The translations under genes and the position numbers were made by a program. A stretch of DNA of 64,000 bases, taken from assembly GCA_051294905.1 (NCBI GenBank), contig CM119371.1:932001-996000 (forward strand), read 5' to 3'. The notes beneath the pieces are model-generated. The model ran no database searches. It saw only the letters and a list, made by a program, of their open reading frames with translations, and was not told where the DNA came from. Source of the stretch: Botryllus schlosseri. Taxonomy: Eukaryota. Below, in pieces: positions 24,785-59,225 of this stretch; the stretch's first letter is position 1, and the number at the start of each line of letters is the position of its first letter.

Positions 24785-25840
24785 CCTAAACCCCAACCCA
24801 TTCCTATGACACCCCACCACCTCATCTTACGACACCCTAATCCTAACCCACACGTGCTGACACCCCAATCCCTAACCCCACACATGCAACCGCAACCCCT
24901 ATCCTAACCCCGCACACGCAACTGCAACCACACCCCCACCCTAATCCTAACCCCACACATGCAACCTCATCTTACGACACCCTTCTAACCCCACACATGC
25001 AACCGCAACCCGGCCACCCCTATCCTAACCCCGCATACGCAACCCAACACATGCAAACCCCACACATGCAACTGTAACCCCACCACCTCATTTTACGCAT
25101 ACGCAACCCGCACACCCCACCACCTCATCTTACGACACCCTAATCCTAACCCACACGTGCTGACACCCCAATCCCTAACCCCACACATGCAACCGCAACC
25201 GCTATCCTAACCCCGCACACGCAACTGCAACCACACCCCCACCCTAATCCTAACCCCATCTACGACACCCTTCTAACCCCACACATGCAACCGCAACCCT
25301 GCCACCCCTATCCTAACCCCGCATACGCAACCCAACACATGCAACTGTAACCCCACCACCTCATTTTACGCATACGGAACCCCGCACACGCAACTGCAAC
25401 CACACCCCCACCACCCCACCCCACACATGCAACTGCAACCCCACCACCTCATCTTACGACACCCTAATCCTAACCCCACACATGCAACCTCATCTTACGA
25501 CACCCTTCTAACCCCACACATGCAACCGCAACCCTGCCACCCCTATCCTAACCCCGCATACGCAACCCAACACATGCAAACCCCACACATGCAACTGTAA
25601 CCCCACCACCTCATTTTACGCATACGCAACCCCACACGTGCAACCCTGCCACCCCTATCCTAACCCCGCATACGCAACCCCCACACATGCAACTGTAACC
25701 CCATTTTACGCATACGCAACCCCACACATGCAACCTCATCTTACGACACCCTAATCCTAACCCACGCGTGCTGACCCCCCAATCCTAACCCCACACATGC
25801 AACCACAATCCCGCCACCCCAATCCTAACCTAACCTAATG
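24785..25840. repeat. C/A-rich compound minisatellite with telomere-like CCTAACCC motifs
   Basis: Shuffled modules CCCTAATCCTAACCCC, CACACATGCAAC and CCTCATCTTACGACACCC. Confidence 0.9.
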
Positions 25841-28714: not shown

Positions 28715-29405
28715 CCTTAACTGATGCAGAGTTAGAAGACTGCCGCGAGAAGCCTCTGATTTTGTTTCATCCATGCCGCAATCAAACAGTGCATGGAACA
28801 TCATGTAAAGCTCGTAACAGAAGCATCAGGGCACGTTTCGGGATTTCAAAGACGAGATGGCCTCATTCGCCGAAAAATTAAGTCTCGTAAACTGATGAAA
28901 AAACTTGACAAAAGAATGCATTTTTAATATAAGACGTTCAATGTGAATGTTTCATTATGATGTTTTGAACCGATTTTAAAAGGACTGTGTTGTGAATAAA
29001 TTTGTAATATGGGGCCAATATTCGGTATTGCCAGTGTGTTACTTTACTTTAAAAAAAACTAATGACAGATCACAAATAAATGCTGAATTTCAACAAAAAT
29101 GTGCGTATATATAGTTTTTTGGCTATAACTCATTTTGTGTTCGCAATAGAGAAAACTTTCTTCAGAAGACAGATAGAAACATGATGCTTCCGCAGATTTT
29201 GAGCTATATATCATGACTCTACGACCAGCGGTTGCCGAGATGGGCCATTTTACCCCCCCCCCACGCGCATAAATTGAGGGGTTGCCGGCTGGAAAATGGG
29301 GGCAACACCCTGAAGTCACTTTTAATTGAAGTTTTATGTCATTTGTCAGGATTGAGGAAGGCCTTTTTTGATTTGAAAAAAAAAAGTCATTTTCATTCCA
29401 CCCTA
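28715..29405 (+). mobile_element. Inverted second copy of the 3' end of the TAGGGTG-terminal transposon
   Basis: Reverse complement of ~22254-22950 (LTDAELE.CREKPLILFHPC; GVKWPISATAGRRVMIYSSKSAEASC), ending CATTCCACCCTA. Confidence 0.85.
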
Positions 29406-30597: not shown

Positions 30598-32355
30598 CAG
30601 GGCATGGTATGGTATGGTATGGTATGGAAGTAGGGTATGGTATGGATCGATATTTTGGTATGGAATATGGAACAATGCAACTATGGTATGGAATGGAAGA
30701 TTTTAATCTATGGTATGGAACGACATTTCCATACTTCCATACTTTGGTATTTCATACATTTTATCGTGATCTGTGCAAGCTTCATGAAGCGTACGTCGTT
30801 CGCCGTTCACGGATTACGATCGCTTTTGTTATGCGTGAACGTGAACTATTGAACGCTGTGTAGGATCAAATACACGCTTGTGCAACGGTTTTATGAGCAC
30901 TTGGAATGGCATGATTTTGTGATGTAATAATCACAACAGTAATGTTGATCCGATATTCTATTGAGTCTAGACATGACGTCTCCGAGCATAGTCTATCATG
31001 TGACGCAATAATTGGTAATGTTGGCTACTCCAACTACCTCATTCCTTGAGTGACGAGAGCTTACAAGCAATCATGATGCAACTTACTTAATGCTCAATGT
31101 GATTAATAATTGAATTTCTTCTGAAACATCCGCACATTTATACTTATCGGTCATATTTCAAACCCTCTCGCATTAGGATTATAGATCAGGAAGTGGGGTA
31201 GATTTAGTTTGAAATTCTCGCCACACTAACCCCAACCAAATACTGTATTAATGATCACGCAGATCGCTGCAGTATTGATCGCCTGCAGCTGGGATATTTT
31301 ATGGGTGCGTCTATATTATAAATTATTTTGCGAGTATTTACTTCAAACTTGCATGTGCCTCCTGCCAATGTACCGGAAATGCGACGATATTTTTATGGGG
31401 CAGGGGCGTGCAACTTCTCTAGTCGGCGAGCCGGATATAGGAAAATTAAGTACTTGGCGGGCCGGATTGCTGAATGAATAAATTATTCGCCCATATATAC
31501 AAGGAATAAATCGTATTTATTGAATGTGTATGTTATCGACAGCAATGTCACTTCAAAGCTATTTCTCGCTGATGATGAAAATACAATGTAGATTTGAGAA
31601 CAGCATTGTCATACAGGTGCCGCCATGTCTGCTTCTCTCTGATCAACTAACTCACAGTGCAATTCTTAATTAAGATTTCAAAGCGTTTGATCAGCCCCTT
31701 TACCCAAAAATTACCAAGATATCAATTCATCAGGGTTGAGTTCATCGTAAATGCCGAAAATGCAAGTCTTCTCGCTTTGAAGAACTTACCAGTAAGCTCC
31801 ACTCTCGCACGCTGCGCAGTGCGCAGACCTATGTAATCACATGTGTTCACTAAAATTTGACGTTTAGGCAAGTAGTGGGGAATCTCGGCAGACTGGGGCC
31901 GCAGGCCACATTATCATGTAAGACGGGAAACTGTCCGCGGGCAGGACAAAATCTCGTTGCGGGCCGTATGTTGCCAGTCCCTTTTATGGACGGTCCTAGA
32001 TAACAATTTGCTGACTATCTCAATTTGCTCGCGGAAGCTGGAGAGTAGAGGTACACGGCATAGCACCAATGTGAACTAAACCTCACAAAACAGACTCTTT
32101 GAAACTTTTACCAGGAGTTAGATTCGCATCATGGCTAGTTTAAGCAATAATGACTTCCAAAATATCAATAATATAGGTGCTAGAAAAGGTACTATACTTA
32201 TGATATTGATGTATTTGAAAGTATGGAATATGTATCAAGTATGGTATGGAATAATGTTGGTATGGTATGGAAAATTGCAAGTATGGTATGGAGAGAGTAA
32301 GGCAAGTATGGAGTATGGAAAATTCTCGTTCCATACCATACCATACCATGCCCTG
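30598..32355. mobile_element. Non-autonomous hAT element with (GGTAT)n subterminal repeats and a nested MITE at ~31400-31985
   Basis: TIRs CAGGGCATGGTATGGTATGG / CCATACCATACCATGCCCTG, with an 8-bp TSD TATGCAAG at 30590-30597 and 32356-32363. Confidence 0.9.
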
Positions 32356-32690
32356 TATGCAAGATACCGTGATTTTTGTCGACACCGATTACTCATTACT
32401 CGATGACTTGAAATTGACTCGTGAATTCTGCTCCGAGTCACGAGTCAATCCAGATTTTCGATACGCCGAGTCAAGTCAAGTCAAGTCATTTTAGCAAATA
32501 TCTCGATTCAAGACAAGTCCTACGAGAAAGGTGACTCGAGTCATCCCAACACTGATACCTGCTCATCATGCCATATAATGTGGTCGTACGGATTCATAAA
32601 ATTACACAACACATTCATTAAGCTGCGTTCGATTTATGTTCAATAAATCCTCTGTCCAAATACCGGTGAATGCCTCAACAAATAGACTTT

Positions 32691-33349
32691 TAGGGCGGAG
32701 ATAATAAAGTAGGATTAGCAATTAAGTCGATTATCCCCTTCGTCAGGATTTATCAACCCAGGATTAAGGAAACCGTTTGATCGCAGCGCATAAAGTTAGT
32801 GTTAATCTCTTCATTTAACTAGCTGGGACAAACTATAGATTACTAGTTAGAAACTAGGTACACTGCGTAACATTCCTACGCCGAATTATTTCCGACAATT
32901 CCGATTGTCTCCTAGCCTGGGTAATGGATTCACCATGTTAACATTATATCTATAGCTTCACTAAGCAATCAACGAATTATTAAGGCCTAACCACCATTGC
33001 AGAGCGATATCCGTTTCTTAGTTGTATCGAATAGGACACGACTTTCATTTGGCGATGAAGGATTGTGGAATCTATATAGTTTTATAGTTTCTATAGTTTT
33101 TATAGTTTATATAGTTTCGCATTATAACGCGCGCCGCTTGATTGAAAACTCTGGAGACCTCGACTAACCATCGCGCGAAACCTTCTTCAACTTTATGCGT
33201 CGCCATTAGCAGTATTTGATCATACGATTAGCATTCTTCCGGATCTGCAAACTTTACCATCTCCGCCTAAAATGGGTCCCAATCTACAGTTTCCTTATCA
33301 CATGATTAGCATTCTCCCAGATCCGTCAACTTTATTATCTCCGCCCTTA
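32691..33349. mobile_element. MITE
   Basis: TIRs TAGGGCGGAGATAATAAAGT / ACTTTATTATCTCCGCCCTTA. Confidence 0.75.
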
Positions 33350-34074
33350 GTGCTTTATAATGATTATGGGCTACTCGTCAGTGAATTCTTGGAAGTTTCT
33401 GATATTGGTAATTCTCGATTAAACTCAAACTCGACCACATCGGTATGACGAGCCAGATATCAGCATCACTCTATGTAGCCTAAAAACCTGCAGTGTTCCT
33501 TGTTCATTCCCATTCTAATCCAGGCTACGAGTTTAAAATTTATGAGGCATATTTATCCATCACTCTCTCCTGCCTCATATCACTATTCCCCTGAAACATT
33601 TTCGTTCTATCCTAGCTCTTGTTGAAAGAAGCTTCCGACCCCGGCGGCAGATCAGTCTCCTCCACTGCAAAACCATTTCTTTGAACTGCTATAAGCAGGT
33701 TGTTGCTATTGTTGTTGCCAGTACGGTACTCTCGAGTTATTGGATTATGACGTCACTCAGTTCACCGGGGGGTTTAACCTTAGGCCACGGGAAAGTGATG
33801 CGGCGACCATTCATTGCGCATAAATCACTTAGTTTGTAGATCAAACTCTATGCCAGGGCCGGCAACCCGTGGCCCGCGAGAAGGTTTTTGAGTGGCCCGC
33901 GAGGTAATTTCCGAAATTTATAATATCATCCAAAATGGATTGCTCAGATTGTGAACTTGCAAGGTCAACCAAAAATCTGATTATTCTGGCCGCAGCACTT
34001 GAGATGGGATGACTGAAATATCAGTTCCGACGCATTGGCAGATCCATCAGCCAGTCACATATTGGTATATCTTC

Positions 34075-35370
34075 CAGAGGTGGTCAAAGTAGTCAAGAAA
34101 GCTACTCAAGTAGAAGTAGAAGTAGCGACGAAAAAAATCTACTCAAGTACAAGTAGAAGTACTTCTTTCATGAGCAACCTAAAACTACTTGAAGTAGAAG
34201 TAGAATTGACTGACTCTAGAAGTACTCAAGTAAGTAAGTAGTTGTGAAAATGATCCTGATTGGATGGATTATAAAAAGGTGCAAATTGAGCTATGTGATA
34301 GGTGACGAGCTTGATTGATATTGATGCATACCAGCAGGTATCCAATTTTCGATAGCAGAAGCATTCGTCCACATCATGGGATGAAAATGATAGTATTGGC
34401 AAGGAAATGCGATACTAATCCTCTGTTTTCTCGAACAATACGTTTTGGAAAATAGCATGGTATGGCGTCATCCCCCATATTATAAGGCCCGTAGTTTAGT
34501 CGAAGAGCAATAAGGAGAAGTTGTATAGGATACGGTCTAAACACTTTGTGCGATTAGTAAACGTTAATAAAAAATATGGTGGACCGTAAAATAGCCATAT
34601 TATGTAGCTTTATTTCCAAAAATTTAAGGCATTACTGCACTTACTTTTATACTTCAACATGTATGTTATTCGGATAACAGAACTGATATTAATTATAACT
34701 CAAAGTATATGACACTGGGAATTGAAAGTGAAATATAAATACTACTTCTAAAAGTAGAATATGTATTTCATGTTTTTAGTCAAGAAAGTATCAAAGGTAG
34801 TATGCTAAAACAGCTCTAAAATTTTAAAAAAAAGTCCACTCTTCCAGATTAGGACACGCCATGGACATATTTGCTAGATTACGATATGACAAGAAAATGC
34901 TAGATTGCGAAACATCAGCTTCAAAGTTTATGATGAGCCATACATACTGTGATGAATTATTTCATATGGGCGAAGGGCGACAGTGTGGTGTGAACGGAAC
35001 CACGCCAACCCTCCATCTAAATTATATTCACCGATACTTTCGTGAAATCATACTGCATGGTCACTCCGTATCCACTGGGCGCGAAGCGTGACGGAAATTC
35101 TGTGCTTTACTAAACTTTTATGAAAATTAGATGGCAATACTCCTTGAAAACAGCCCCGAAATTCCTCAGGCTATCTTCCTGATTGGAAGATTGAACTACT
35201 TCTACTTGACAAACTGAAAATAGCGAAAAGTAAGTAAGTAGATCACAAAATATTAACAAGTAGAAGTAGAAGTAGCGAAAATCAGATCTACTTGAGTAAG
35301 TACCAGAAGTAGATGAAAACTACTTGAGTACTTCGAAAAAGTAGAAGTACTTCGTTACTGACCACCTCTG
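34075..35370. mobile_element. Non-autonomous hAT element (AAGTAG-rich ends)
   Basis: TIRs CAGAGGTGGTCA / TGACCACCTCTG, with an 8-bp TSD ATATCTTC at 34067-34074 and 35371-35378. Confidence 0.9.
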
Positions 35371-35510
35371 ATATCTTCGTACACTACAATAAAGCAGAAT
35401 AATTTGCGATAGATTTATCAAAAGTAAAAATTTTCTACAATAGCTTAGTAGCGCAACATGTTGTCACTCGATTTCTTGTTTTTAATATTGTTGCCTAGGC
35501 TTACCATACG

Positions 35511-37324
35511 ATGAGTCAAGAGAATACAGGCAAGGCCTGGGGAGCGGAAGTCCGTCAATTCGTGCTAGCAGAAGACGAAGAATCTACTCTAAAACAGGAC
35601 TTGGAAAGAACAGCTGCTGAAGCGCTTATACTTGCAAATGAAGATTATAAACCACCAGATATTGAAGACCCTGAGAATCAATGGGAAGGGCTGAAACCTG
35701 AGATTTGGTTACCAATCTTCGAAAAATAGAAGAACGAAATAGGCAGTCTGGAAAAGAATCTATCACGTGATTCAGGTTTACCCTACAAGTTCACGCTTGA
35801 GCTCAAAGACGAGACAGTCGACCCATTCGTAGGAAAGGCGTATACCTTACGAAATGACGTACATACAAGGGGATTGGAAAAAGAACTGGACAGATATCTA
35901 CAATTGGGCGTTATTGAAGTGGGTAACTCTGAATGGAAAACCTCACCCTTTGTAGTGGCTCAAAAACAGAACAACAGACAGAAGGAGGAAGCATTGAAAC
36001 GGCACCTTGAACAAGGATTAACGGGGGAACCGGATCCGCCTATGAGAGTAGTTCAAGATTTCGTACCTCTCAACAACAATACTAAAGCTACAAATGTAGT
36101 ACCACCTCTGATATCTGATTTGATACATAAAGCATCGGGAAGGACGAAGAAAACGCTGATAGATCTCACCAAGGCATATTATCACGTGCAGGTGCCAGAA
36201 CAATATCGCAAATATCTGGGAATTGCAGTACGAAATAGAGAACTACGTTGGAAACGTTTAGCTATGGGCCTCAAAAATGCTGTGGCAATATTCCAGCAAT
36301 CGATGAATGAAGGATTGGTAGAACCAGTAACGCGAGAATACAGAAAGCTTGCAAAAACCCATGGATGGGGAGAAGAAGAGGAAAAAGCGTGCCCTATATT
36401 CGCATACATTGATGATATTCTACTCATAACAAAGACAGATGAACAGCATCTAGTATTACTAGATCTGGTGTTTGCTCAACTTGCTGAACTTCGACTCACC
36501 ATCAGTATCAATAAGTGCTTTGTGGGAAAGAAGAAAATAAATCTACTTGGCGTGTTGCTGGATGAAGATACGGTCAAAGTACAACCTGAAAGGATCAGGG
36601 CCTTGCGTGAAATGCCACCACCCAGGAATATATTCGAACTACGCGGATATATTGGAGCTTTAAGATATTTGGCAGCGCACTTTGAAGATATGGCGATGAT
36701 ACTGGCGTGTTTTGATAGCCAGACAGGATGTGTACCAGCGTCACAAAGCAGGCGAGTACCTGTTAAATGGACACGAAAATTGCTTGAACATTACACGAAA
36801 ATGCGTGATGTTCTACTACGACCGAAAACGCTCTTTCATATACGAATGGGGCTACCAATCTTCGTACAAACAGACGCAGCGTTGGACGGGATGGGTGCAG
36901 TTCTATACCAAACGGAGAACGCAGAGCCCATTCCCACAAACAGATATATCCCGTGGCTTACTACTCAAAGAAATGGAAACCTAATGAAAAAAGTTCATAC
37001 AGTGCGTGTAAAAAAGAAATTTTGGCGGTGGTACGAGCTTTCGAGAAATGGGGTTCTATACTTCTGGGTAGACCCGTATCAATACTTACGGACAAAGGAG
37101 TAATGGGAATATTGAAGAAAGTCACTGAGGGTAACAAACAAGCTTCAGATGACCCGCAAATGATGAGATGGGTAGCTGTGATCAGCGCCTACAATATCAG
37201 AAACGTGGTTCATATTTCTACATCAGAAATATTCACGGCGGATGCACTATCAAGAATGTTTGTAGAAAACACGGCAGTGGAAGAAGGTGACCCACTGGCC
37301 TGGATAGCTATCAAGAAAGGCGGA
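35511..37324 (+). pseudogene. pol: pol: reverse transcriptase and RNase H (Ty3/gypsy- or caulimovirid-like)
   Basis: RT motifs MRVVQDFVPLN, IDLTKAYYHV, LAMGLKNAVAIFQ, AYIDDILL, INKC and NLLG. RNase H motifs QTDAALDGMGAVL, AYYSKK, KEILAV, LTD and ADALSR. In-frame TAG at 35727 and a frameshift near 36950. Confidence 0.93.
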
Positions 37325-37822
37325 ATGACAAAAAATGAGAAGGAAAAGCTTAACAGAAAATTGATTAAACATCTCAGGCATACAGAATGTATGCTACAGA
37401 AGAAGGGTTGGCACCCTATGGCATGTGCTATGAAATATGGCTATGATGATCCGAAGGAATGGATTGAGAATGACAGAATAATGATCTCGGAGCATGGGAT
37501 TGCGGCAAAACAAGGACATACTAAAGGACAGAATCCGCAAATGCAGCAGTGGCTTAACCCGGAAGGGCTAACAACATTGTTTCATGCTACTCGAAAGAAC
37601 CGAGTATCCCCTATTATGGCAGAAGGCATAGCTAAAATGGGAAGACGTTTTGTACATCTATACACGGACGAAAGAGATGCGAAGCAAAAGGGAGAAGTCT
37701 GCATCTGCGTTGACATAGAAAGACTCAAACCGCAATCACTATGGTCCTTGAATGACGCGTCGAAAGTTGTACTATCATCGGACATAATTCCTAATGATTG
37801 TATATCTATTTCAGATGAATAG
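37325..37822 (+). CDS. Tpt1/KptA-like RNA 2'-phosphotransferase domain, in frame with RNase H
   Basis: Motifs in the correct order: KLIKHLRH...GW, NDRI, IAAKQGHT, LFHAT, GIAKMGRRFVHL, ICVD, VVLSSDIIPNDCI. Confidence 0.82.
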   Translation: MTKNEKEKLNRKLIKHLRHTECMLQKKGWHPMACAMKYGYDDPKEWIENDRIMISEHGIAAKQGHTKGQNPQMQQWLNPEGLTTLFHATRKNRVSPIMAEGIAKMGRRFVHLYTDERDAKQKGEVCICVDIERLKPQSLWSLNDASKVVLSSDIIPNDCISISDE

Positions 37823-39732
37823 GAATCTACCATATTACCCTAGTAAGTCGGCTAATGCTGCTATGCATCTGAGACTGAGGGAATATGGAATGATACGACA
37901 TGGATGGAATACGAAACCTACCGCATCAGGAAATAATTACGTGAACCGTCTGGCGCTTATTACTGTGTGGCCTCTACCCAGTAACTCACGGCTAAATCCA
38001 CTACAATTAAGTATAACCAATGAAATGCAAGGAAATGACTGAAGAAAACAAAGGCCGGGGTTTGAAGAAAGCTTGAGTGAAGTTTGGAGAATGTTTCGAT
38101 CCTATGAGATACATCCTAATGTGGATAAGCTATACGCTTACTTCACTGATGGAGAATACCGTAAAGCAGGGGTTCTCAACTTCCCTTGTATCGCGGGCCG
38201 CATTTTAACAGCAAAAGACGCTGCGGGCCGCAAAACATTATTGCCATGTAATTGTGGGCTACTATTAAATTTAGGCTACTGTAGCCTATTTACCAGTCAT
38301 ATACAGGCCGATATATTCCCCTTTAAACCCTTTCAACAGAGAACCGAACTCTCTGCTTCAAACCGGAAGAGAGCAAGTATAAAATTACGGTAACTTTTGC
38401 GTTAGAGAAGCCATTATCACATTGAGCTCTCAGTCATATATAAATTAGTTAGCTTTGTCAAGTTGGTGTTTTTCGCTGGTTCCCCTCCCACGTTGGCCCA
38501 GCCTGCATTTTCTCTATGTTCACTCTGACAAAATGCACCCAGATAATTAGATATGCAGAGTCTGTGGAGTCGGTGAATTCATCCAATGCTAGGATAAAGT
38601 AGTCTACGTGACTACGTGTTTCAGAACATGCGATAAAAGATCGACTGACATTGCTGTAACTCTTTTGGTCATGGTTGAATCAGACAACTGTAGTTTCGAC
38701 ATATGCCAGGTGCTGTTGTAATTGCTGCTAAGTTCCGGAAACATCAAATACTCGCAGAATTTTATTGAAAACACACTTTCTCTAGCAAATTTCTTGGGTT
38801 TAGCGATATTCCCAGCAATTTTGAACGATTTGTCTGCAACGTCGTCGGCAATCTTAAATGCCTCGAAATATGGATTACTGGGCTTGAAACCTAGCTAGCA
38901 ACGTTATTTATAAGATCAGGCGATCTGAATAACTCCAAACGTTATGCCATACGAAAACGGTTCTTCGACAAGTATGATACAACGGTCTTCTATTTATTTC
39001 TGAGAAAACAAATTCATTGTTCCACGCTGAGTCACAAACCCAGTTTTTGCCGTTTTATTGCCCATTCCGTGCTCTTGTTTCTGTTCAAACCATTCGCGGT
39101 GAGTAAAACACTCTTTAAAAAATGTACTACGTATAGCGGGATTGTCGTGAACCAGAGTCCAACCGAATACGGATTCAAAACAATAACAATCTAAACTCGA
39201 GCATATATCAAGAAACCAGAACACATCAAAAATGATTAATTAAACGAAAGAGAGATAAGAGAGCTAAGCAGCTAAATTAATATGTAACAATACCGTGTCA
39301 GTAATAATTGCGTTCATAATGAAAGATGTCGCGGGCCGCAAAATAAACGTCTGCGGGCCGCATGCGGCCCGCGGGCCGCGGGTTGAGAACCCCTGCCGTA
39401 AAGCATTGGACAATGGAGTATTGCCGATGAAACAAAAATATTTGCAGGGATATAAATACAAATTCGGTATACTCACTACTTGTGAGTTGGCGCCTAAAGG
39501 TTGGGAAAAGAGACACAGAATATCTGTTACACTACCTAGTGTACAGAGTAAATCCAAGTACCCTCGTAAGGAGGTCCTGAAAAATTGGAACAATACTGAA
39601 CAATGTCAGCCATTACATCTATGGCAATGGAATGGAAGCAAAAACTGGTTATGGGCGAGCAAACACTTTATACCTAACGAGTTGAGAGATGATAATGTGA
39701 TTTTCGTTGGGACTGCGACATTGATAGACTGA
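37815..39732 (+). pseudogene. ORF3 of the retroelement (~225 aa), possible divergent Tpt1-like paralogue, split by a hAT insertion
   Basis: Its ATG overlaps the pol end (gATGAATAG). One TGA at 38040. The frame rejoins across the 38167-39395 insert as ...FTDGEYRK|ALDNGVLPMKQKY... Confidence 0.65.
38167..39395. mobile_element. Non-autonomous hAT element inserted in ORF3
   Basis: TIRs CAGGGGTTCTCAAC / GTTGAGAACCCCTG, with an 8-bp TSD CCGTAAAG at 38159-38166 and 39396-39403. Confidence 0.93.
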
Positions 39733-39775
39733 TATTTGTGCAACTGAACATTTAGCACTGAATACAATACTAACA

Positions 39776-41040
39776 ATGGTATACGCTTTACAGATAATAG
39801 TTACAATACCTATGTCGGAAGTGAACATATCGAGTGTGACTGAAACAACCACGGTGGAAAAGAACAACATATTTGAAATATACATACCACCTGTGAACTC
39901 GGAATGGGCCACGTTCGCATTGCTTCTGTTGTCTATTGCTGGATTATCATGGTCATTTATTGCGTTCTGCTGGACGCGGAGGATCGAAAACGAATCAGAC
40001 GGATGAAAAACAACCTATAATCCCGAGCTCGGATCTACAATTGTTGGCATAGAAGACAAGGTACACTGGTTACAGACTGAAGTCTATGATGAATCGTTAC
40101 ACGGCAATAACTCCACTCATAAATGGATACCTATAGCCGGATGGGAGGAAGTCAAGTACAACATGACATCAGAATGCGACGAAAAAGATGACACTCTTTC
40201 GAATTTTCCAACTAGTACATATGGAATAGTAAGATCGAGATCTGTGAATTATGTGGAAAAATACTTCCATAATACAACAATATTCTCGTCCCATGACGAA
40301 TATATCTCCGAATGCAGAACAAACAATGCGACAACATACCGGAAAAGATCTGAGATATTGCCTGAATTGCATCCTCTAGTGTTTGATCGGAGCGTGATTT
40401 ATGTTCGAGACAATAAACCATACCAATGGCATCATTGGAATTGGGATCCGGTATCGAATAATGCGAGGTCATGGAATGAAGAAGATATTACAGTCCTCAA
40501 TTTGGTGGAATTCTTCACGGCATATCGCATACAAGTTTCATTGCTATTCCAAGAATTTGCCGAAGTTCATGCTAATTGTACGACTAAGAAAGAAGCTAGA
40601 GAAGCTAGTGCAATTTAAAGAGGGGAGAATTAGGTGGCAACTCAGCCGAATAAGTTGGTCATATTCAATCAATTATTCCTATGACAGTAGGCTAAAGTAC
40701 CTTTGTGGCAGGGATTTTTCGACAAATGGCATCACCATGCGCTGAAAATAAGGACAGAATGGACCATAGATTGTTCGTTCTATGGCAAAGAATCGTCCCG
40801 AATACGACCCGAGACACTAAAGGCCGATCCGTATCTAGTCATGACCTGGGGAAAAACAGATAAGCGATTTAGTAAAACGAGCCCTAAAAGAATGCATGAA
40901 GAAATGAAATGCATTACTGGAAGTGCGGCAATACCAAGCGGTGCGCATCTCGCATTCCCAATGTTGTCTCCAGCGGAGACAATTGAAGCGTAGCCATTTT
41001 GTCTCCTTGGCTACCTAGTCGTCGGAAATTTTACCTGGGC
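39776..41040 (+). pseudogene. env: env-like glycoprotein, 5' part (signal/anchor and surface subunit)
   Basis: ORFs 39776, 40163 and 40703 share one frame, and 40007-40162 is open after TGA 40004. Hydrophobic segment WATFALLLLSIAGLSWSFIAFCW, several NxS/T sequons, Trp/Cys-rich. Confidence 0.65.
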
Positions 41041-41639
41041 GCTTATGGGTTTACGCATTGTACCTTCATAAAACGGACTAATAATCAGGTACTGTTAGTT
41101 ATCAGCCGTTTATCTTTTGATATTGCGTTTATACTAAACCATTTATTCCTATAACTTACAGATTATAACATCGGGAATTCTGGGAATAGAATAAGAAGTA
41201 CGATAGAAACAGGATATAACTCAGATGTCAGAACAGCAGTTAGCTATCGAAGTAAGATTCACAACTCTGAACTAATATCACTGATCACTGGGTGATCCTT
41301 TTAAATTTTTCATCCATATGCATTTTCACATCCATGTACACTGTACAGGTGATTCCAAGATAATGTCGAGGGGGGTGGGGATCAGTCGGTCAGGTGTGCT
41401 GTGCTTATAATATAAGTTATAAGCTTATGGCTGTACAAAACGTTTGAAGGCAGTATCGAGTTTGTGAGGAGTTATAGCGAGGATGAGGAAATACAGTGTA
41501 AGCGGCGATATCCACTTACTTTTTATCTGTGAGATTTTAGCATTTATAAGGGAGACAATTTTTCATCTAACATTTTGCTTGATGCCAGCTTGACACTTTG
41601 AAAAATTTTCTATTTACAGATACATGAACAGATGATTGT

Positions 41640-41810
41640 ATTATGCATTATGCATTGCAGCTGAAGGAATGCTTAAGAACACCTGATTATTACTATGGTA
41701 TGTGTTCAGTTTCCCTTGGTAGCAATGATGCTCTAAAGAACGAATGGATTGGAGACATCAAGAGAGAAAATTGGAAGCCCTCAAAATATTAAAGGATCTG
41801 CTCCAAAGAA
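41640..41810 (+). pseudogene. THAP-domain fragment in a non-retroviral insert (~41050-43870) that interrupts env
   Basis: Hand translation gives LKNEWIGDIKRENWKPSKY*RICSK, the THAP W...R..WxP....ICS signature. Insert ends are not resolved. Confidence 0.6.
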
Positions 41811-42148
41811 TGGAAAGAGCTCTGAAACAATGGAATGAGCTAGAAAGATCCGCGGAATAGAGACTGACACTGAAAGAAACTGTGACATCGAGCAGACGAG
41901 CACTAGGCCAAGGTGGATGCCAGTTTAAGAAACTGCAACTGGTCGTTCGGCATGCTCCTATCTGTGTGTGTCTTGTTCAGATGAAAATATAATCTGACGA
42001 TTTTTGATTTATTTTCACCAGCGGCCTGACTTTTCCGTGCTTAGTAGCAATTTGGTCGAAAAGCTGTCACAGACCCAATGAAATCGTCTCGAGACCCTCA
42101 CTTAACTAGGGGGTGGAATTTCTACAGAAATCATTTATGTATAATTAT

Positions 42149-42979
42149 TAGGGCGGTTTTTTTTGACATGTCAAAATTGTAGCGTTAGGTCAAAATTTGT
42201 CAAAATTTTTCATCAAGTCAAAATTTTTTCGACATCTGCATTTCGTTTGTATCGTAGATTCTGCACTGTCGGTGTACATATCATTTGATATTTTAAAGCT
42301 TGTAGCCTATTTTATAGGACTACCGTTGTAAACGGCTAATTGTCTGCTCATTGTGAACCGTAAACGGTCAAATAAAACAAATAGGTAGACATGGTGTTAT
42401 GGTCAACATACCGCAATATCCTAACTGAAGAAAGACTTCTTGGACATTGCATCATTCTTACATTAGGAAGCGCACGATGAAAAATTGTGATGTAGACAAC
42501 ATTGTCAGAATAAAGCAACACGGTGTGTCACCAGCAGTGTACGCACAACTTGAGTGTTGTCAGCCAACAACTGCTGCTGTTAAACGTCCTTGGCAAGCTT
42601 CTTAGTAAGGACATGCACTTTCTACCCAAGAATGTAGGAAAGTATCTCTCGTTGTACTACAACATCTTTCAATTATTTCTACCATAATACATATTGTAAC
42701 CACTGGAATTCTTCATAGGGCCAGATTTCGTTAAAATATTGTTTTTTTCATGTAAAAAGTTGCCTGTTTCTAAGCCAAAAACGTTTTTTTTCAGGCCAAA
42801 CTGCGTCGTTAGGACAGTCAGTTCCAGCCGGAAATGAAGATTGAGTGGTACAATTTTAACATTATGTGGGAAAACACCTAATTTGCATATGTTAGGCCAA
42901 TATTTGGTCAAGATTCAGTTCAAAATTTTGATTTTTTAGGTCAAAATTTCCCTTTTTTTTAGGTAAAAAAAACGCCCCA
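42149..42979. mobile_element. MITE
   Basis: Ends TAGGGCGGTTTTTTT / AAAAAAACGCCCCA, with an 8-bp TSD ATAATTAT at 42141-42148 and 42980-42987. Confidence 0.75.
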
Positions 42980-44016
42980 ATAATTATACATACATACATC
43001 TAGCTAAAAATCGCCAAAAGAAAATACTATTGTAAAGAACTATTTCCATATATTTTAACAGTTCTACCATAAAAATCTTAAAACCTCGTATACCCTAACC
43101 TAAAGCCAGATTTCACCCAAAAGATTTCAATGTTGACAATCGGCAACTATATCAACTCCACCAGGAATTATTTCAGTAGCATCAATGTCAACATGTTTCT
43201 TTCTTGGCTAGTTCTGTTTTAAATGCAAGTGTTCAGCATTCCTGACACACAAGCAATTACATGAATTAGTTTTGTTGTTCTGTTTCTGATATTTTGGTTT
43301 TACAGGGTACCGTATTCAATGACAAGCCTATTTGGTCATCTCAATCTGCAAGAAACTAATTATCCTTCTTTATTTCGGTGGCACAAAAGACTGGCATATT
43401 TCCGGCAACGTTGAAAACTATTTATGAATTGCCCAGTTGAACCATACTCTTTCTATGTCCATATGTGGATCGCTGAAATAAAAATACCGTATATCACAAT
43501 GATCTCGTTGATATATTTCTGGTGCATAGAACCGTATAGTCATAGTACAATTACAGTTTAATAACCGTGGCAAAATCATGGACAGGGCAGAAGCAGTTTA
43601 GGTTTAGATGACTTCTTTGAGACATCGAGAGCAAACTTGATGTGTTCCTGCACTCGCAAGCAAACATCACCGAAGGCGATTAGCATCAGTGCTACTCAAG
43701 ACTGCTTCACGTTGAGTTTGATGTAGTCAGAAGCTAATCGTTGAAATATTCGCGTCGGAATGTCGTTGCAATGCAGTATCCCTTGAAGTTACACACGAGT
43801 CTTCGCCGTTTTAGATCCATCTATGGATACTGAAGTCGCAAATGCAATCCATGGCGTCATTCAAGGCTGACATACCTATTAGAAAGGGTATACTATAGTT
43901 CATTAATATGGTCTGTGTTAGTTTTGTGATAAAACATACTTATTCCAGACGAAAACCCCTCGAAAAGCGTAAAACACGGAGAATCCCAGTAGTTCACCAT
44001 AAGCACCAGTGCGCAA

Positions 44017-46573: not shown

Positions 46574-46581
46574 GTGCGCAA

Positions 46582-48510
46582 GTAGGTAGCCAGAGCTGTT
46601 TTTCAATTTTCTCCGCCGTCACGGTAAGTTGCGCACTCCAGTGTTTATATAGCTCAGTGGGCAATACACATACAACGGACCGGTGCTGAATTTATATTTG
46701 AGGATTTGGCAAGGATAAAGTTGGCGTTGATGGAAGAATACGTTGACAATATCTGGGCAACCCGAATATATCCAGTATAAAAAAGGATGACATCAATAGT
46801 ACATTGACAGAAACGCGACAATACTATAAGACATGAGCAGTAAAGACGGTCAAAAGATTTAAACCGTTCGCTACGTTTCACATGCTACATAGATGGGGAT
46901 CTGTTGTGTACACGGGAGTCCATGGAAGAGTCTGGAATAATCGACTAAGGTTGAAAGTAACTAATGGAATACCTAACAAGACCATATCCGGAACTCCTTT
47001 ATGTCGCTTGGGACTACCGAGAAGAGGAATTAATGAAGGCAACGCATCTATTATGGATACATATTGGTCGGACTACGAAACCGATTGGCCGCCAAGATCC
47101 GGAGGTTACGATGGAGTTTTAGAAGAAGAGTTAATACTGTTGCAAACGGAAAACACCAAGAAAGCACGACAATCTAAGTGCGACCATCCTTTTGTTCCCC
47201 TAATTACAAAACTTGAGTACTGGAATGATACACGTTACTATGTGAATCTGCAAGAAAGATATCCTGTGCAACCTTTTTGTTTCAAGACAATGACAGGAAA
47301 ATCGGACTCTACGAACAACCAGACAAGGTCAAAGAGGCAAGTACTAGCGGTGGGTTCCCGATTTATACGATTGGCAACTACAGGACAATGGGGTTCCACT
47401 AAAATGGAATCGGCCGCCAATGCACATGTGGCAAGCCTGGAAAGAGAAATCAGAGACAGGTTTCGTAATGATGCAAAGAATCTAGCAAAAACTGCGGTTG
47501 GGCTTCGGCGTTTACACAAAATTACGCCTGAACTAATGAAAGTGTTAACCAGGGTACAAGCAATGTTACTTGAAAAAGGTCGGCTAGCAGACAAAGATGA
47601 CAGAACTCATTCGACCTTAGTGCAGATGGGAAATGGAGATGGTTCCATTACATTGAAGAACCTAGTTTCCGAAATACACATGTTGGAAAGAATGGCGCGA
47701 GTTCAACTAGCAGCGGATGATATGGTTAGCAGGGAACTGCTGCGAGTGAACATACATGTGCCCAGTGATGTCAAATTTGAATTGATTATCATAGAGGGTA
47801 TAATACAACTGAAAACACTTGCAAGAAGAATGAAAATACCTGTGGAAAATGTCAATATTGAAGAATTCGAAAAGCCGCTAGAATCATTTGTCAACGACAC
47901 CAATAGCAATCTGACGATTAGAAAAATCGAGAACAGTGCTATACACCGAGAATTGAAAAAGATCAAGAATGCAAGTATGACTATGAAACATGAAGAAAAA
48001 ACATGGTATGGTCGAAGATAGGGAATTGAACGAGTGCCTGACGCGTCAGGTAAAATTGCTAAAGGTCTCGGAAAGACAATTGTCAAAACTGCTAAAGGTG
48101 TCGGAACTGGGTTGGAAACAGTTGTTAATGAAGGCGAGAAGATAGTAAATGGCGTTGGTAAAACAGTCGGATGAATATTCGGAAGCGTATTCGGATCCCT
48201 GTTAAAGCCATTATTGATTCCAGTAGCCATTGGTATAGCAGTGCTAATTGTGATATGTATCCTATTACAATGCCACCCGCAGTGCCATGAAAACAAACAG
48301 AGATTACATCCGTCATTGAGGTGGGGAAGTAATAAAAAAGAACGTATGTGGTCAATCAAGAATAGCAATTTGATTCACGAAGGCAAAAAGATACTACCCG
48401 AAGCCGTTAAAATGGCGACAATAGCCCTGCCGGCATATCAAGCCAAACCAACGAAGGGCGTAAAGTGGGCCGACGATGTTGAATGTGAGAAAGAAAATAG
48501 TGGGATGTAA
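46582..48510 (+). pseudogene. env: env-like glycoprotein, 3' part (furin site, fusion-peptide/heptad region, membrane-proximal region, TM and tail)
   Basis: RSKR at 47326-47337, then QVLAVGSRFIRLATTG and a heptad-like stretch. The Gly-rich GLGKTIVKTAKGVGTGLETVV...IFGSVFGSLLKPLL precedes TM IPVAIGIAVLIVICILL. ORFs 46882 and 48214 are in one frame, separated by TAG 48019 and TGA 48172. Confidence 0.8.
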
Positions 48511-49493: not shown

Positions 49494-49560
49494 ACTAATA
49501 TGTTCAATTAGTTTCCCCGGCTTTTAGGGTGATTAGCGTGCGCCAAACGCTGCTATGAAC

Positions 49561-55300: not shown

Positions 55301-55940
55301 GGTTGGAACATACCTTTTGCTGAATTCTGTATATTATTGATGTAATTGTGAAGTAAAGAGTCTATGATATGCAATAATAAGCATGCGACCCGGTTGGAAC
55401 ACACCTTATGCTGAAGCCTGTGTATTGTTGATGTAATTGTGTATTAATTGTTGAGTAATTGTGCTGTAATTGAGACGTAAACGCTGATTGGAGTATTTGG
55501 TTGTATTAAGGTGGATTGGCTTGATTGGATACTGATTAGCTACTAATTAGTAATAAATTCTGGTTGAAAGCTGTATGAGTTACGTCTGAAAAGTAACCAT
55601 ACGACGGAATTAAAGCTGTGTGTGAGCTACGCCTGAAAGGTAGCTACACACGACGGAAGAATTGGACACTACTTGTCATCACTACTTGTCGTATACTGGC
55701 ATCCCTGCCTGACAATTTACAAGTGATACTGCATACTACAAAGGAACTGGACACTATATTATCACAAATTGTTGCACACTGGCATCTTTGCCTGACAATT
55801 TACAAGTGATACGAAAGATATAGGTGACCCGTATGGAGGGCATTGTGTCTTCACAATCTATACGCTGTCATAGCTATATAAACAGGTGTAAACCCTGTGT
55901 AATTGGAGTTCCCACCGAGATAGAGAGAGATATAGAGAGA
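52400..55940 (+). promoter_or_regulatory. Long non-coding LTR-like/intergenic region of the retroelement with tandem repeats
   Basis: AATAAA cluster at ~52900-52921. Five ~90-nt units with core ACCCGGTTGGAA(C/T)A(C/T)ACCTT at ~53340, 53445, 55205, 55297 and 55387. Paired direct repeats at 55570-55660 and 55695-55812. Confidence 0.55.
53538..55175. mobile_element. Foldback hAT-type element with ~670-bp inverted arms
   Basis: Ends TAGGGTTGTCCA / TGGACAACCCTA, with an 8-bp TSD GTGCCTAT at 53530-53537 and 55176-55183. Mirror ORFs at 53469(-) and 54981(+). Confidence 0.93.
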
Positions 55941-55942
55941 AC

Positions 55943-58803
55943 ATGGACATTGGGCCAGAGTCCAAGTTAAAAAAATTGTGGAGGCGGACCAGATCTGCAG
56001 ATTCAAAAACCACTCGATCTCTGAGTAGCTCTCGTAGGACATCTCGCGAACATTCTGCTGACAAAGGTCATGTGTCGGAAGGAGAGGTCACGGTTTCTGG
56101 TGATGAAACTACCAGTGTTTATACTGTACGGCAGGGAAGGTCTGCGTCACGATCGGGCATGTTCAGCAGAAGTCGTACCCCTTCGAAAACTCGAGCAAAG
56201 AGCGTGGAGCGCATTGAAAAATTGAAAGATACAAGACAACAGATAAAAATAACTCAACAACGTTATAACGAGGTTGTTAAAAAACATTCGGACTTGATTA
56301 AAAAGGCGAAAACGGACGCTGATCTTCAAACAAATGGCGGGGAAGATATTGCCTCACGTCGAAAAAGAAATAAACAGGGCTTACAAGTCCATCTCTGAAA
56401 TACGGAAGGAGTTGGATGAGCTGAAGAAAATACATAAACGCCGGTTGAAAGGTATTGACCCCAAAGAACTAGCTAGATCATTGGAAACCGCTACAGTTAT
56501 GGGTGAACAAATAGCTCATGCTAGCATTCTTCGAAATACCTATGGGACACACCCAAGCTTCAGTATGACTCCCAAAACGCCACCGTCGTACCAAGAATCG
56601 ATGGAAGGAGATAACAGAAGTCAGGCGCCGTCTGCACCTGATGATAATGAGCTAGGATATCCCATTGTCCGCGAAGCCAACACTACAAAACAACAGTCGG
56701 TAGGAACATCAGTGGATACGGTGAACAGGGGGCATGTAAATATGCTAATTTCGGGAGAACCTGAACCGGGCGAGCCGGAATGGAAAGAATATGAAGAAAA
56801 TCAGTCCGAGTGGAGGGATAGAAACCCTGAACGTATACTATACCCTACCAGAACTAGGCGTATATTGGGAAGACAGCTTAATATTGGTAAAAGAGGCGCG
56901 CCGGGATATACACCAGGCATTGACCACGAGATAGTGGCCGAATGGGAAGATCCCTATGACGAAGACCCCATATTATATTCCACGAGAGACAAAAAAGAAG
57001 AATTAATATACAAATTGCAGACAGCAATAACAGGGATAGATGAGTTTCAAAAGGACTAGGAAAAGGAACGTAATGAACTGTGGATTGCCCATAAGGAAGA
57101 AAGGAGGCAAACCCAGAATTATCAGGAAGCCGATGACAGGGCGGAATATCTTGAGGGTCGAATTAAAGATTTACTCAACGAATTATCACAAATGCGAGTA
57201 AAGTTGCAACAATCAAAGAATTATGAGAACCAGGCAATATATCTTGCGTCACGATGGGAAGATGAATATCGCGGTGTTTGTTCGGATTTGAAACGAAATA
57301 AGAAAGGAAAAATGACTTACAAGCTAACCTAAAGCTGTCCGAATCGCGTGTGGCTGAGCAAGCAGCGGAGTTACTTGACAGATTGGAAGATACTGGACGT
57401 TCGCATGTACGTCTACCCTCATCGTTAGGTCCGGACAACAGCGATGTTCGCTCGACGCCTAATCGCGTCCACAATACAGCAGGTAGAAAAGAAATTCCAT
57501 GCGAAGACGAGTCACGACATAATCACGAATACAATATAGAAGGCAGAGATGAGGTTACACGCCGTGGTGCGTCACAACAACGCAACCCGAACTGTCCAGA
57601 AGGCAGGAATGAGTTTATGCGCGGCGGTGCGTCGCTACTACGCAACCCAGCCTATAATACAGCAGGCAGAGACGAGTTTCAACACGACGGTTGGTCACAA
57701 CAACGCAATCCTGGCTTTACTATACTTGGTGAAGAAGAATCTTACGAGCTTACCAGAGATCAGCTGAAATACCTAACACCAGGCAGACGTCAACACATGT
57801 TGCCGGATACGGATAAATTCAAAGAACTCGTACAACGCCTAGACGATCCTGAAGACAAACCCATAGTTACGTGGATATTAAAACAAATCAAGAACACCAA
57901 CACGGGCAGTGGCCATGAACCAAGATATAAATTATTCTACCAAGCTCTGCGTAGTAAACTCGAAAAGGCGGGCAGAATAGAACAGACGCTTAATTTATCT
58001 CGCGTCTACAATGCCAATGAACGGGACACTTGGAGAGATATGATGGATTCCCTTATACAATGGTATCCTAACAGTCGCACGGACAAAGAGGAAGTCATTG
58101 AGAATTTCGCTGAACGCTTCAGTTGGAAACAAATGCCAGGACCCCAACTTTACGAAGTTTTGAGAAAATTGTCAATGAATACGCATGAAGTGATAATGGA
58201 TTCTCCATTGGGCATGAAGTTATACAGAAAAATTAAAGCTGTACTACCCTTTATGTACAAAGGCACGCTACGCACTCAACCTTTAAATTCACGGATGGAT
58301 TGGAAAGAGTTTGGGTCCATGATGCAAGCATGGTGGCAAGATGAACAAAAAGATCGGGCTGCAAAACGGGCACGCGGATATATGACGGAAAGGCAAGATT
58401 TCACCGTGAGACGTTCTGCATACGAAAATGATGATAACAGGGGACGAGCCTATAATATTGGAACTCCAGTCGCAGCGCGAACTAGGGGAGCACAAAGCAA
58501 CAGACGTCCTTTGAACAGGCCGAACGCGTCAAGTGTACCAGCGGCAAAATTGCGCACTCTGAACCGAAACAACAGGCCGGAGTCGGCACCTCCAGTAATG
58601 ACACGTCAAGAAACACTGCAGCCCACCAGAAATAGGACAACTTCAACATTAGTAGGCAACCATAGTGCACCACGAACTGAACATAATCCGCAACCAATTT
58701 CAAGCTGGCCACAAGCTTTGAATGCTGAAGAAGCCAGGCGCATCTACGATGACGGGGGAGAAAAAGACCAATATCTGGTATTACCCAACATATTTGAACC
58801 ATT
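55943..58803 (+). pseudogene. gag: gag-like ORF (frameshifted): RS-rich N-terminus, coiled coils, late domains, helical capsid-like region, Arg-rich C-terminus
   Basis: Consecutive ORFs 55943, 56334 and 57350. PPSY at 56580-56591 and PSAP at 56628-56639. TWRDMMDSLIQWYP resembles the retrotransposon gag TW..L...F...F motif. Cut at ~58804 by a MITE. Confidence 0.7.
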
Positions 58804-58804
58804 G

Positions 58805-59225
58805 GGGTTATATACTGAGGATTTGTCCTCTTTTTTGACTTTTTTGAAAGTGTCCTCGGAGGACGACCTTTTGTCTCCTTTTTTGAGATTTTGTCCTCTT
58901 TTTGAAAATTTAGGCAGATTTAGAGCAAATTGCGAGTGATATGCCGCATATTAGCACAGAAGTGAAGCTCCGGCGGGTATTTCGGAGTGAAAAACGGTGA
59001 TTTTAGCTCTGAGCGAAAAGATGACATTTTTTTAAGTCATCCACCTGCCAATGTAGAGTAAAAAACGTTATTTTGAGCTCTGAGCAGAAGTGATGACCTT
59101 TTTTTAGTCAGCCGATCACAAAGTGGGAAAAATTAACCGGTTTTTCAGAATTTTACTCCGGTTTTGCAAGTTGCAAATTTCTGAAAAAGTGTCCTCTTTT
59201 TTTATTTCCAAAATAGGGTAAGCCT
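58805..59225. mobile_element. MITE (GTCCTCTTTTT-rich) truncating gag
   Basis: Similar to ~8490-8745 (TTTGTCCTCTTTTTTGAAAATTT...GCAAGT...GTCCTCTTTT). The last ~45 aa of ORF 57350 are read from it. Confidence 0.65.

Follow-up and report, generated by a model that had tools for sequence, protein, structure and literature searches.

We analysed a stretch of 64,000 nucleotides of Botryllus schlosseri DNA (assembly GCA_051294905.1, contig CM119371.1, positions 932,001 to 996,000 of the forward strand; hereafter the window, in whose own numbering all coordinates are given), which carries at 35.5-37.8 kb the remains of a retroelement pol gene. The stop-to-stop open reading frame (ORF) 36809-37822 (+ strand, 337 aa, stop codon at 37820-37822) encodes in a single frame an RNase H domain, a short linker and a two-lobed Tpt1/KptA domain, with Pfam matches to RT_RNaseH (E 3e-15, residues 43-128) and to PTS_2-RNA/PF01885 (E 1.8e-9, residues 229-323). 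The neighbouring ORF 35730-37103 (+ strand, 457 aa) matches the reverse transcriptase (RT) model RVT_1 (E 1.2e-19). The gene divides as follows; the numbers of R44, H45, R77, R133 and other Tpt1 residues refer to the stretch 37247-37819.

35499..35729, + strand: pol remnant upstream of the RT, closing with an in-frame TAG at 35727-35729
35730..36929, + strand: RT with its YIDD motif, plus the beginning of the RNase H/tether region, in frame 0; RVT_1 match and 41% identity to residues 222-655 of the relative P0020
36929..36932, + strand: frameshift between the tblastn blocks 35601-36929 and 36932-37717, which lie in different frames against P0020
36932..37255, + strand: RNase H domain with the terminal motif ADALSR (37238-37255); Pfam RT_RNaseH, E 3e-15
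37256..37330, + strand: linker VENTAVEEGDPLAW..., alignable with the linkers of P0020, P0001 and P0002 (alignment A1)
37331..37546, + strand: N-terminal (RNA/winged-helix) lobe of Tpt1 with R44-H45 (37376-37381) and R77 (37475-37477), placed by sequence and model
37547..37822, + strand: C-terminal NAD+ (ADP-ribosyltransferase) lobe of Tpt1 with H113-A-T115 (37583-37591) and R133 (37643-37645), placed by PF01885

The 5′-most homology of this gene lies at 35601, matching P0020 residue 222, and the linker is disordered in the AF2 model (residues 1-21, pLDDT below 50). An earlier note, made from the sequence alone, had read the end of the frame as a Tpt1/KptA domain standing where an integrase should be. 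The motifs that it quoted (ADALSR, LRH, ENDRI, IAAKQGHT, LFHAT, KMGRRFVHL, ICVD and IIPNDCI) all occur in ORF 36809-37822 in the same order and frame. The four residues that it named as catalytic, R142, H143, R175 and R231 when numbered from 36953, are our R44, H45, R77 and R133 (codons 37376-37378, 37379-37381, 37475-37477 and 37643-37645) and occupy the correct catalytic positions. The placement was right as well: the domain directly follows RNase H, and no integrase was found in the window.

Profile, sequence and fold comparisons confirmed that the domain is a genuine Tpt1/KptA. Searched on its own (the last 179 residues), it reached 40.5 bits with PF01885 (E 3.8e-10; gathering score 26), the match spanning positions 73-175 of the 177 in the profile. 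A phmmer search against PDB sequences returned 12 matches at E≤10, the top ten of which are all Tpt1 chains (best E 2.6e-5) that align in register (query 66-176 with chain 66-178), the remaining two (E 0.25 and 0.52) being unrelated. PF01885 was present in 30 of the 30 nearest ESM-Atlas clusters (top score 0.94). The AF2 model of the domain, built on a 19-row alignment, reached a mean pLDDT of 81.7, and with this model Foldseek retrieved exclusively Tpt1/KptA entries at E≤0.001 (best 7.1e-10), PARP domains appearing from E 0.06. The checks by profile and by predicted structure that the earlier note had proposed came out in its favour. Because VIA-align superposed the model on a solved Tpt1 from end to end (Z 13.1, 153-155 residues aligned, model 29-191 on chain 1-180), both Tpt1 lobes are present; other ADP-ribosyltransferases matched the C-terminal lobe only (Z 6.6-8.2). 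The domain stands nearer to the compact enzymes of archaea and bacteria than to TRPT1 of human or mouse (Foldseek 7e-10 versus 1.9e-5), and no human, mouse or yeast chain was in its PDB phmmer list. TkoTpt1 was the best sequence match and stood among the top structural matches, which were statistically tied.

The essential tetrad of the Clostridium thermocellum enzyme (CthTpt1) consists of R18, H19, R68 and R121, and further contacts are made by K66, Y80, H101-G-T103 and R139/R140 (Banerjee et al. 2019, PMC6333775). In the same enzyme study the H-G-T motif touches the adenosine ribose of NAD+, and its double alanine mutant is lethal (PMC6333775). All four tetrad residues are present in the window domain as R44, H45, R77 and R133. 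In a 19-row alignment (A2), R133 is invariant together with A87, G90, H91, H113, T115, G127 and H137, while conservation is 90% or higher at R44, H45, R77 and I123. From R77 to Q89 the spacing is 12 and from H113 to R133 it is 20, the same as between R68 and Y80 and between H101 and R121 in CthTpt1, and the H-x-T motif reads H113-A-T115, its H and T being the invariant residues already named. Comparison of A2 with the published residues (PMC6333775) further places the third tetrad Arg, R77, in the K-x-R motif and not in 'IRA'.

The lysine of this K-x-R motif (Cth K66, Tko K63) is absent from 7 of 7 retroelement domains, being N75 in the window and C, S, C, G, C and C in the six relatives. The enzymes of yeast and Runella do not depend on it (PMC6333775) and neither, according to the TkoTpt1 paper, do the yeast, human and mouse enzymes in vivo, although TkoTpt1 requires it for step 2 on DNA (PMC12678800). 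Because the residue is dispensable in Runella and yeast even though needed in TkoTpt1, we treat its loss as a variant feature and no bar to membership, and we count the domain within the Tpt1/KptA family, this being its one variant feature. The residue aligned with Tyr80/Gln78 also varies among the seven retroelement members (Q, A, H, Y, C, H and N). With active-site residues retained across retroelement Tpt1 sequences of merely 24-38% identity, the retroelement domain looks catalytically complete.

Set beside the solved enzymes of Thermococcus kodakarensis (KptA, 9LD4 series), Pyrococcus horikoshii (8TFI) and Clostridium thermocellum (6E3A), and Tpt1/KptA/TRPT1 enzymes in general, the window domain shares the size of about 165-180 residues, the two lobes, the tetrad with its spacing, the H-x-T motif and the M-x-R-x-x-V-H-L motif. 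It differs in forming the C-terminus of a Pol where they are free-standing cellular enzymes, in the replaced lysine (N, C, S or G), in being only 22-27% identical to the solved enzymes and in belonging to a clade of its own.

An exhaustive HMMER search with the domain against 1.84 billion representatives (E≤0.001) returned 21 proteins: six of retroelement type, 12 ordinary Tpt1-sized proteins and three repeat proteins. The last three (P0004, P0005 and P0014) were rejected as spurious multi-stretch matches, Pfam showing AAA_12/PIN, weak unrelated matches without PF01885 or a retroelement domain, and ankyrin; of the 12 canonical representatives, six were checked by Pfam and confirmed to have PF01885. 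In P0020 (1003 aa) Pfam recognises RVT_1, both RNase H models and, at residues 872-969, PF01885 (42.5 bits), and the protein ends 34 residues beyond the PF01885 match. P0006 (967 aa) and its longer cluster-mate P0022 (1122 aa) carry RVT_1, RNase H and PF01885 (30.3 bits in P0006), followed C-terminally by a complete Exo_endo_phos domain (profile positions 1-225 of 225). Among PDB entries the tail of P0022 (residues 882-1122) matched 5cfe (3.7e-42) and human APE1 (about 2e-31), and the PDB matches of this nuclease at E≤0.01 were ExoIII/APE-type repair nucleases plus Crc, none labelled as a retrotransposon endonuclease. P0001, P0002, P0003 and P0007 are short fragments, of which P0001 and P0002 start with the RNase H-Tpt1 linker. 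P0002 is RefSeq XP_039263204.1 of the tunicate Styela clava, annotated as 'probable RNA 2′-phosphotransferase'; it is likely, to judge by its sequence, a retroelement Pol fragment annotated as a host gene, which would make at least one RefSeq entry of this name an annotation problem.

P0020 residues 222-946 align with window positions 35601-37717 at 41% identity over the RT and 28% over RNase H-Tpt1 (tblastn), and the window is 28-34% identical to P0020 and P0006/P0022 over RNase H plus Tpt1. Because the design recurs in P0020 and P0006/P0022, an insertion specific to this copy, a case that the note had named against itself, is excluded. On the sequences compared, the Tpt1 fusion is common to distant relatives and not peculiar to the window copy.

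Both trees recovered these proteins as a group. A maximum-likelihood Tpt1 tree, from which the three spurious matches and P0006 (the shorter form of P0022) were left out, split the seven retroelement rows from the 12 canonical rows with 100/97 support. A FastTree of 119 RT rows, computed without P0024, P0120 and P0127 (alignments too short or split), placed the window, P0020 and P0022 in one clade (support 100, stem 0.97) among 116 other rows that are mostly Ty3/gypsy-type polymerases. We considered whether its sister group, P0050 and P0098, is integrase-less too, but both are truncated models that bear no evidence on this: P0098 is cut within RNase H, and P0050 ends in the apparent start of an integrase zinc-binding motif.

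Further searches added one contig. A word-indexed protein search for fused forms, with the Tpt1 domain among longer proteins, scored 0 of 85 candidates, and one with P0020 residues 800-1003 found P0020 alone among 793; because the index misses distant relatives, these blanks carry little weight. Alignment A3 was discarded as a locus-scan query since it was too divergent. When alignment A4 was used, none of 106 pattern matches on viral contigs proved to be a relative, and metagenome contigs gave nine loci from 289 matches, with L001 as the only clade member and L002-L009 as RT relatives at 22-29%. With alignment A5, viral contigs gave 0 of 68, and contigs of prokaryote genomes 7 of 63, all of them 28-36% matches on contigs of archaea or bacteria, where nothing pointed to the retroelement form.

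L001 is a marine-metagenome contig of 4703 bp that is 98% identical to P0020 residues 1-679. It shows, in order, an open gag-like ORF (3-1517), an ORF with a CCHC knuckle (zf-CCHC, E 5.6e-5) and the pol ORF, which opens with a D-S-G protease motif followed by RT; P0022 has D-T-G in the same place. Because Pfam protease models did not score, the protease of L001 and P0022 is supported at the motif level only. Given this gag-CCHC-protease-RT order in L001, the clade is built like a long terminal repeat (LTR) retroelement or retrovirus apart from its C-terminus.

It is at this C-terminus that integrase is missing. No DDE integrase (rve/PF00665) was matched by Pfam in the pol ORFs of the window, and 69 other ORFs (≥75 aa, 30-62 kb) gave no Pfam match at E≤0.01 and hence contain neither an integrase nor a tyrosine recombinase that Pfam recognises. 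When 119 Ty3/gypsy-type Pols, 85 of them with integrase, were compared with the window by tblastn, 165 of 165 matches fell inside 35730-37570. Among the relatives listed for the RT-RNase H part of P0020, the closest are 28-29% identical at most (next best E 1.2e-34); counted from the table of the other listed relatives, PF01885 occurs in 0 of 119 and PF00665 in 85 of 119. The element otherwise resembles a Ty3/gypsy-type retroelement in how it works, but because no integrase was found, we do not file it as an ordinary member of Ty3/gypsy.

The reading that we prefer, with a probability of roughly 55%, is that the window holds the decayed, low-copy pol gene of an undescribed, deep-branching clade of Ty3/gypsy-related retroelements or endogenous retroviruses of marine animals, in which a Tpt1 domain replaces integrase and performs NAD+-dependent end chemistry. 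The layout of the clade would be gag(CCHC)-protease-RT-RNase H-Tpt1, one branch adding an ExoIII/APE1-type nuclease, and the Tpt1 domain would have been acquired once. Because the active site has been kept through deep divergence, we infer that the domain works in live elements. A phosphate of a replication intermediate would attack NAD+ in the Tpt1 site and so become ADP-ribosylated. As the preferred substrate we put forward, tentatively and at somewhat less than even odds, the 5′-phosphate end left by the adjoining RNase H on cDNA or RNA. RNase H products carry 5′-phosphates. Such an end would be either capped with ADP-ribose or stripped to 5′-OH, and its modification would govern how host ligases, exonucleases and sensors treat the termini of an integrase-less element.

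Several leads point to this mechanism. Tpt1 stands at the place of integrase, a DNA-end enzyme; one branch adds a DNA-repair nuclease; and the clade is naturally without the lysine equivalent to TkoTpt1 K63 in all seven domains. TkoTpt1 transfers a DNA 5′-phosphate to NAD+, and its K63A mutant stalls at 5′-P-ADPR-DNA (PMC12678800), and a subset of Tpt1 enzymes cap the 5′-phosphates of RNA or DNA (PMC6182162). The proposal of the earlier note that a captured nucleic-acid end-modifying enzyme has replaced integrase is supported by sequence, predicted fold and comparative architecture, and the Tpt1-bearing Pol points to an undescribed way of processing the ends of retroelement nucleic acids. The note also spoke of a virus; the element could be either a virus or a transposon.

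A number of observations weigh against this reading. Intact relatives may carry integrase in a separate ORF, and the architecture of P0006/P0022 is known from gene models only. No LTRs were found by self-BLAST of the window, in which no repeat pair brackets gag and pol in the usual order. The window copy makes no full Pol because of its stop codon and frameshift, and in the bulk RNA run X23 there were 0 reads over 35870-37817 (about 6% of the run read). The loop that cages the NAD+ phosphate (Cth R139/R140) reads K-Q-K-G-E in the window copy; other fragments read R-G-R or R-R in this loop, which aligns with indels. As to chemistry, the substrate of the retroelement Tpt1 would be a guess from sequence. 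The RslTpt1 residue equivalent to R77 matters mainly in step 2 of 2′-phosphate removal (PMC6333775), and the conservation of R77 fits a true 2′-phosphotransferase as well as an enzyme acting on 5′ ends. Nor need the loss of the lysine mean stalling, because the yeast, Runella, human and mouse enzymes can dispense with it.

These last points lead to another account, which we hold to be possible but well short of an even chance, the remaining probability going to other activities or to none. Here Tpt1 would remove 2′-phosphates, either internal or, once a cyclic phosphate has been opened, terminal, from genomic RNA or from a tRNA primer and thereby restore a template or primer that the RT can use. 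The 2′-phosphates would stem from cleavage by metal-independent RNases of the host or from joining by an RNA ligase of the yeast type. Removal of internal RNA 2′-phosphates is common to all Tpt1 enzymes surveyed, and only a subset cap 5′ ends (PMC6182162); a subset has a terminal 2′/3′ phosphomonoesterase activity (PMC6573784); and the tetrad, including the step-2 arginine R77, is conserved. There is also a precedent in the KptA domains of the polyproteins of Beihai picorna-like virus and of a nidovirus of the tunicate Botrylloides leachii, which were read as RNA-end processing (PMC9503650), and one fragment of the retroelement family comes from a tunicate, Styela clava. However, the account presupposes a supply of RNA 2′-phosphates in this host, and we found no publication showing a 2′-phosphate to block the RT. 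Rfam gave 0 matches at the gathering threshold in the window and in L001, which leaves the idea of a circular RNA or a primer without support from a ribozyme or tRNA. Removal of 2′-phosphates would explain neither the loss of integrase nor the gain of an ExoIII/APE1 nuclease, of the DNA-repair type, in one branch.

How the copy came to lie in the window is a separate matter, on which its neighbourhood bears. The Tpt1 part is intact, the TAG at 35727-35729 and the frameshift at 36929-36932 lying upstream in the same gene, and residues 1-387 of the L001 pol ORF (the protease end) have no counterpart in the window. Contigs and reads were compared over 31000-45600. In the host DNA run the word depth, which by the tool's own warning is not a copy number, was 65-87 over pol (35870-37817) and 57-65 over 39766-40739, and the flanks reached 250,000-600,000 (33922-35382), 12,000-19,000 (37818-39765) and 31,000-278,000 (41714-43174). 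This contrast of depth alone suggests that pol is a low-copy island amid high-copy repeats. A few diverged copies exist, represented by 83-90% identical pieces (runs X1, X13 and X14 contain pieces of 83-98%), and matching pieces at 93-98% come from runs whose labels name two other organisms. Among the sequencing runs listed as containing the sequence none was an RNA run.

A 1.3-kb high-copy element (34067-35370), nested in another high-copy repeat, abuts the truncated 5′ end of pol, and many host contigs and RNA reads join 34066 straight to 35371. Farther out lies a pair of direct repeats (31495-31969 and 59375-60766; 83-90% identity), the second copy of which is interrupted by about 940 bp. 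We considered this pair as LTRs and rejected it since its depth exceeds that of pol more than 1000-fold; being of very high copy in the host run, it is a dispersed repeat and not the LTR of the element.

Three further regions downstream of pol could belong to the same insertion, to differing degrees:

39728..40618, + strand: tentative part of the same insertion, a hydrophobic stretch and an ORF with five N-x-S/T sites; depth 57-65, low like that of pol
46837..48021, + strand: possible envelope-type ORF with RSKR at residues 164-167; an Atlas lead only
55892..58939, + strand: gag-like region of three overlapping ORFs, one of which is homologous to the gag ORFs of L001

The last of the three gag-like ORFs (57302-58939) is colinear with and homologous to the gag of L001 (tblastn E 2.5e-9; BLASTP E 3e-11 for residues 157-354 and 1e-4 for residues 447-506) and ends in a decayed, zinc-knuckle-like stretch (58889-58933). 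The gag piece thus breaks off near the point at which the pol piece sets in, although its place in the window is 20 kb downstream of pol, both being on the + strand. ORFs 39728-40618 and 46837-48021, two candidate envelope pieces, are situated in between. ORF 39728-40618 gave no Pfam match. For the envelope-like ORF the nearest Atlas clusters are class I fusion proteins (0.90-0.91, low recognition), which we take as a lead only; Pfam at E≤1 and phmmer against PDB gave noise only for 46837-48021, and its single-sequence AF2 model (pLDDT 31.9) was unusable.

This ORF and ORF 48831-49493 sit between inverted repeats of 69-70% identity (45686-46089 with 50277-49882, and 46398-46575 with 49738-49559), and the stretch 45686-50277 may represent either an independent mobile unit or a portion of the virus-like insertion. 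The gag-like ORFs are preceded, at a distance of about 450 bp, by a 91-bp tandem repeat (2.9 copies at 55180-55441, region 55176-55481), a related copy of which lies 1.9 kb further upstream (53303-53529); these repeats might serve the element as a promoter- or enhancer-like sequence.

The arrangement of pol before gag would fit two truncated copies, a tandem array or the insertion of permuted circular or concatemeric DNA. One account of this kind, which would go with either Tpt1 mechanism and which we again hold to be possible but well short of an even chance, takes the whole not as a transposon copy but as an endogenous copy of an integrase-less, envelope-bearing reverse-transcribing virus whose tandem or circularly permuted DNA was inserted by illegitimate recombination. 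The position of pol (35.6-37.8 kb) ahead of gag (55.9-58.9 kb) would thereby be accounted for, and the account is consistent with the lack of an integrase in the window and of an LTR pair around the genes. The two pieces are near-complementary and permuted, pol starting at the equivalent of residue 388 of the L001 pol ORF and gag stopping at the knuckle; every piece lies on the + strand with purine-rich skews; the depth of pol and of 39766-40739, two to four orders below that of the repeats, suggests low copy; and the envelope-like lead is close by. Yet two independent truncated copies, or a rearrangement among nested repeats, would look identical. Depth, moreover, does not count copies, and several diverged copies do exist, while the nuclease of the P0022 branch could serve integration. 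The envelope assignment is itself weak, there being no Pfam match and no working AF2 model.

Less probable again is the broader version of this idea, an enveloped, integrase-less lineage of reverse-transcribing viruses or elements of marine invertebrates that uses NAD+-dependent ADP-ribosylation or removal of end phosphates by Tpt1 in place of integrase, one branch adding an ExoIII/APE1 nuclease; its DNA would enter or persist through host repair, and the permuted gene order would be the footprint of a circular or concatemeric form.

We consider it improbable that Tpt1 has decayed or been repurposed in these elements, serving as a structural spacer, a protein-directed ADP-ribosyltransferase or an NAD+-consuming factor of counter-defence, without nucleic-acid phosphate chemistry. 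Such a role would accord with the loss of the K-x-R lysine in all seven domains, with the variable residue at Tyr80/Gln78 and with a C-terminal lobe whose fold is common to protein- and DNA-directed ADP-ribosyltransferases (Z 6.6-8.2), but the four residues that bind the RNA junction phosphate and the H-x-T motif are invariant or nearly so at 24-38% identity, and the RNA lobe is retained and aligns with the solved enzymes. That the fusion arose by chance in this copy or through the assembly, a host TRPT1 exon or a captured fragment happening to follow a Ty3/gypsy RNase H in the same frame, might be suspected in a degraded, repeat-embedded copy but is very improbable given the same architecture in P0020 and P0006/P0022 (28-34% identity), a linker alignable across members, the same group in the Tpt1 and RT trees, and the greater likeness of the domain to the enzymes of archaea and bacteria than to TRPT1 of human or mouse.

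Returning to a Tpt1-bearing clade of retroelements, we compared it with known systems. With Ty3/gypsy elements (Metaviridae) and the envelope-carrying errantivirus-type elements it shares an RT-RNase H of the PF00078/PF17917/PF17919 type, the CCHC gag and D-S/T-G protease seen in its relatives, and the possible class I fusion-type ORF nearby. It differs from them in having Tpt1 in place of the PF00665 integrase and an RT that is at most 29% identical to those of the listed integrase-bearing relatives. A survey of errantivirus-type elements (Chary and Hayashi, eLife 2026, PMC13524379) does not contain the terms phosphotransferase, Tpt1, ADP-ribos or endonuclease.

The KptA domains of Beihai picorna-like virus and the Botrylloides leachii nidovirus resemble that of the clade in lying within a replicase polyprotein and in coming from marine animals and, for the latter, from the tunicate host group, whereas their carriers are RNA viruses; other viral carriers are large DNA viruses, some of which have KptA genes (Iyer, Burroughs and Aravind 2022, PMC9503650). 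The available part of the same paper describes KptA as absent or rare in eukaryotic viruses and mentions no KptA-bearing reverse-transcribing element (PMC9503650). In the full-text literature, a search to which subscription journals, supplements and repeat databases (Repbase) did not belong, we found no description of an RT-Tpt1 fusion.

A Pol that ends without a DDE integrase is also found in Caulimoviridae (protease-RT-RNase H), DIRS/Ngaro elements (tyrosine recombinase) and non-LTR elements (APE-type endonuclease), and we know of no Tpt1 in any of these three groups. One caulimovirid replicase (P0126, E 1.8e-14) is among the distant RT relatives and does not group with the clade. Non-LTR elements resemble P0022 in having a nuclease of the Exo_endo_phos superfamily, whereas that of P0022 is of the ExoIII/APE1 repair type and is absent from the window, and the window RT is not of the non-LTR type.

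A Tpt1 borne by retroelements beside RNase H offers a defined biological context in which to find the substrate of Tpt1, and a clade whose Pol ends in Tpt1, with ExoIII/APE1 added in one branch, prompts one to ask by what route such elements persist or integrate. If Tpt1 chemistry does stand in for integrase, this would be a new strategy of replication or integration among retroelements and the first natural animal setting to give the 5′-phosphate chemistry of Tpt1 a clear purpose.

Elsewhere in the window, the - strand at 19412-21942 carries a NACHT ORF (PF05729, E 1e-16, with a NOD2 winged helix) followed by a leucine-rich-repeat ORF, and these host-type ORFs are probably exons of an NLR-like immune gene. 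A C-rich satellite at 24800-25830 (GC 0.50, GC skew -0.42, units of 173-300 bp) is bracketed by a 700-bp inverted repeat pair (22254-22946 and 28716-29405) of 93% identity.

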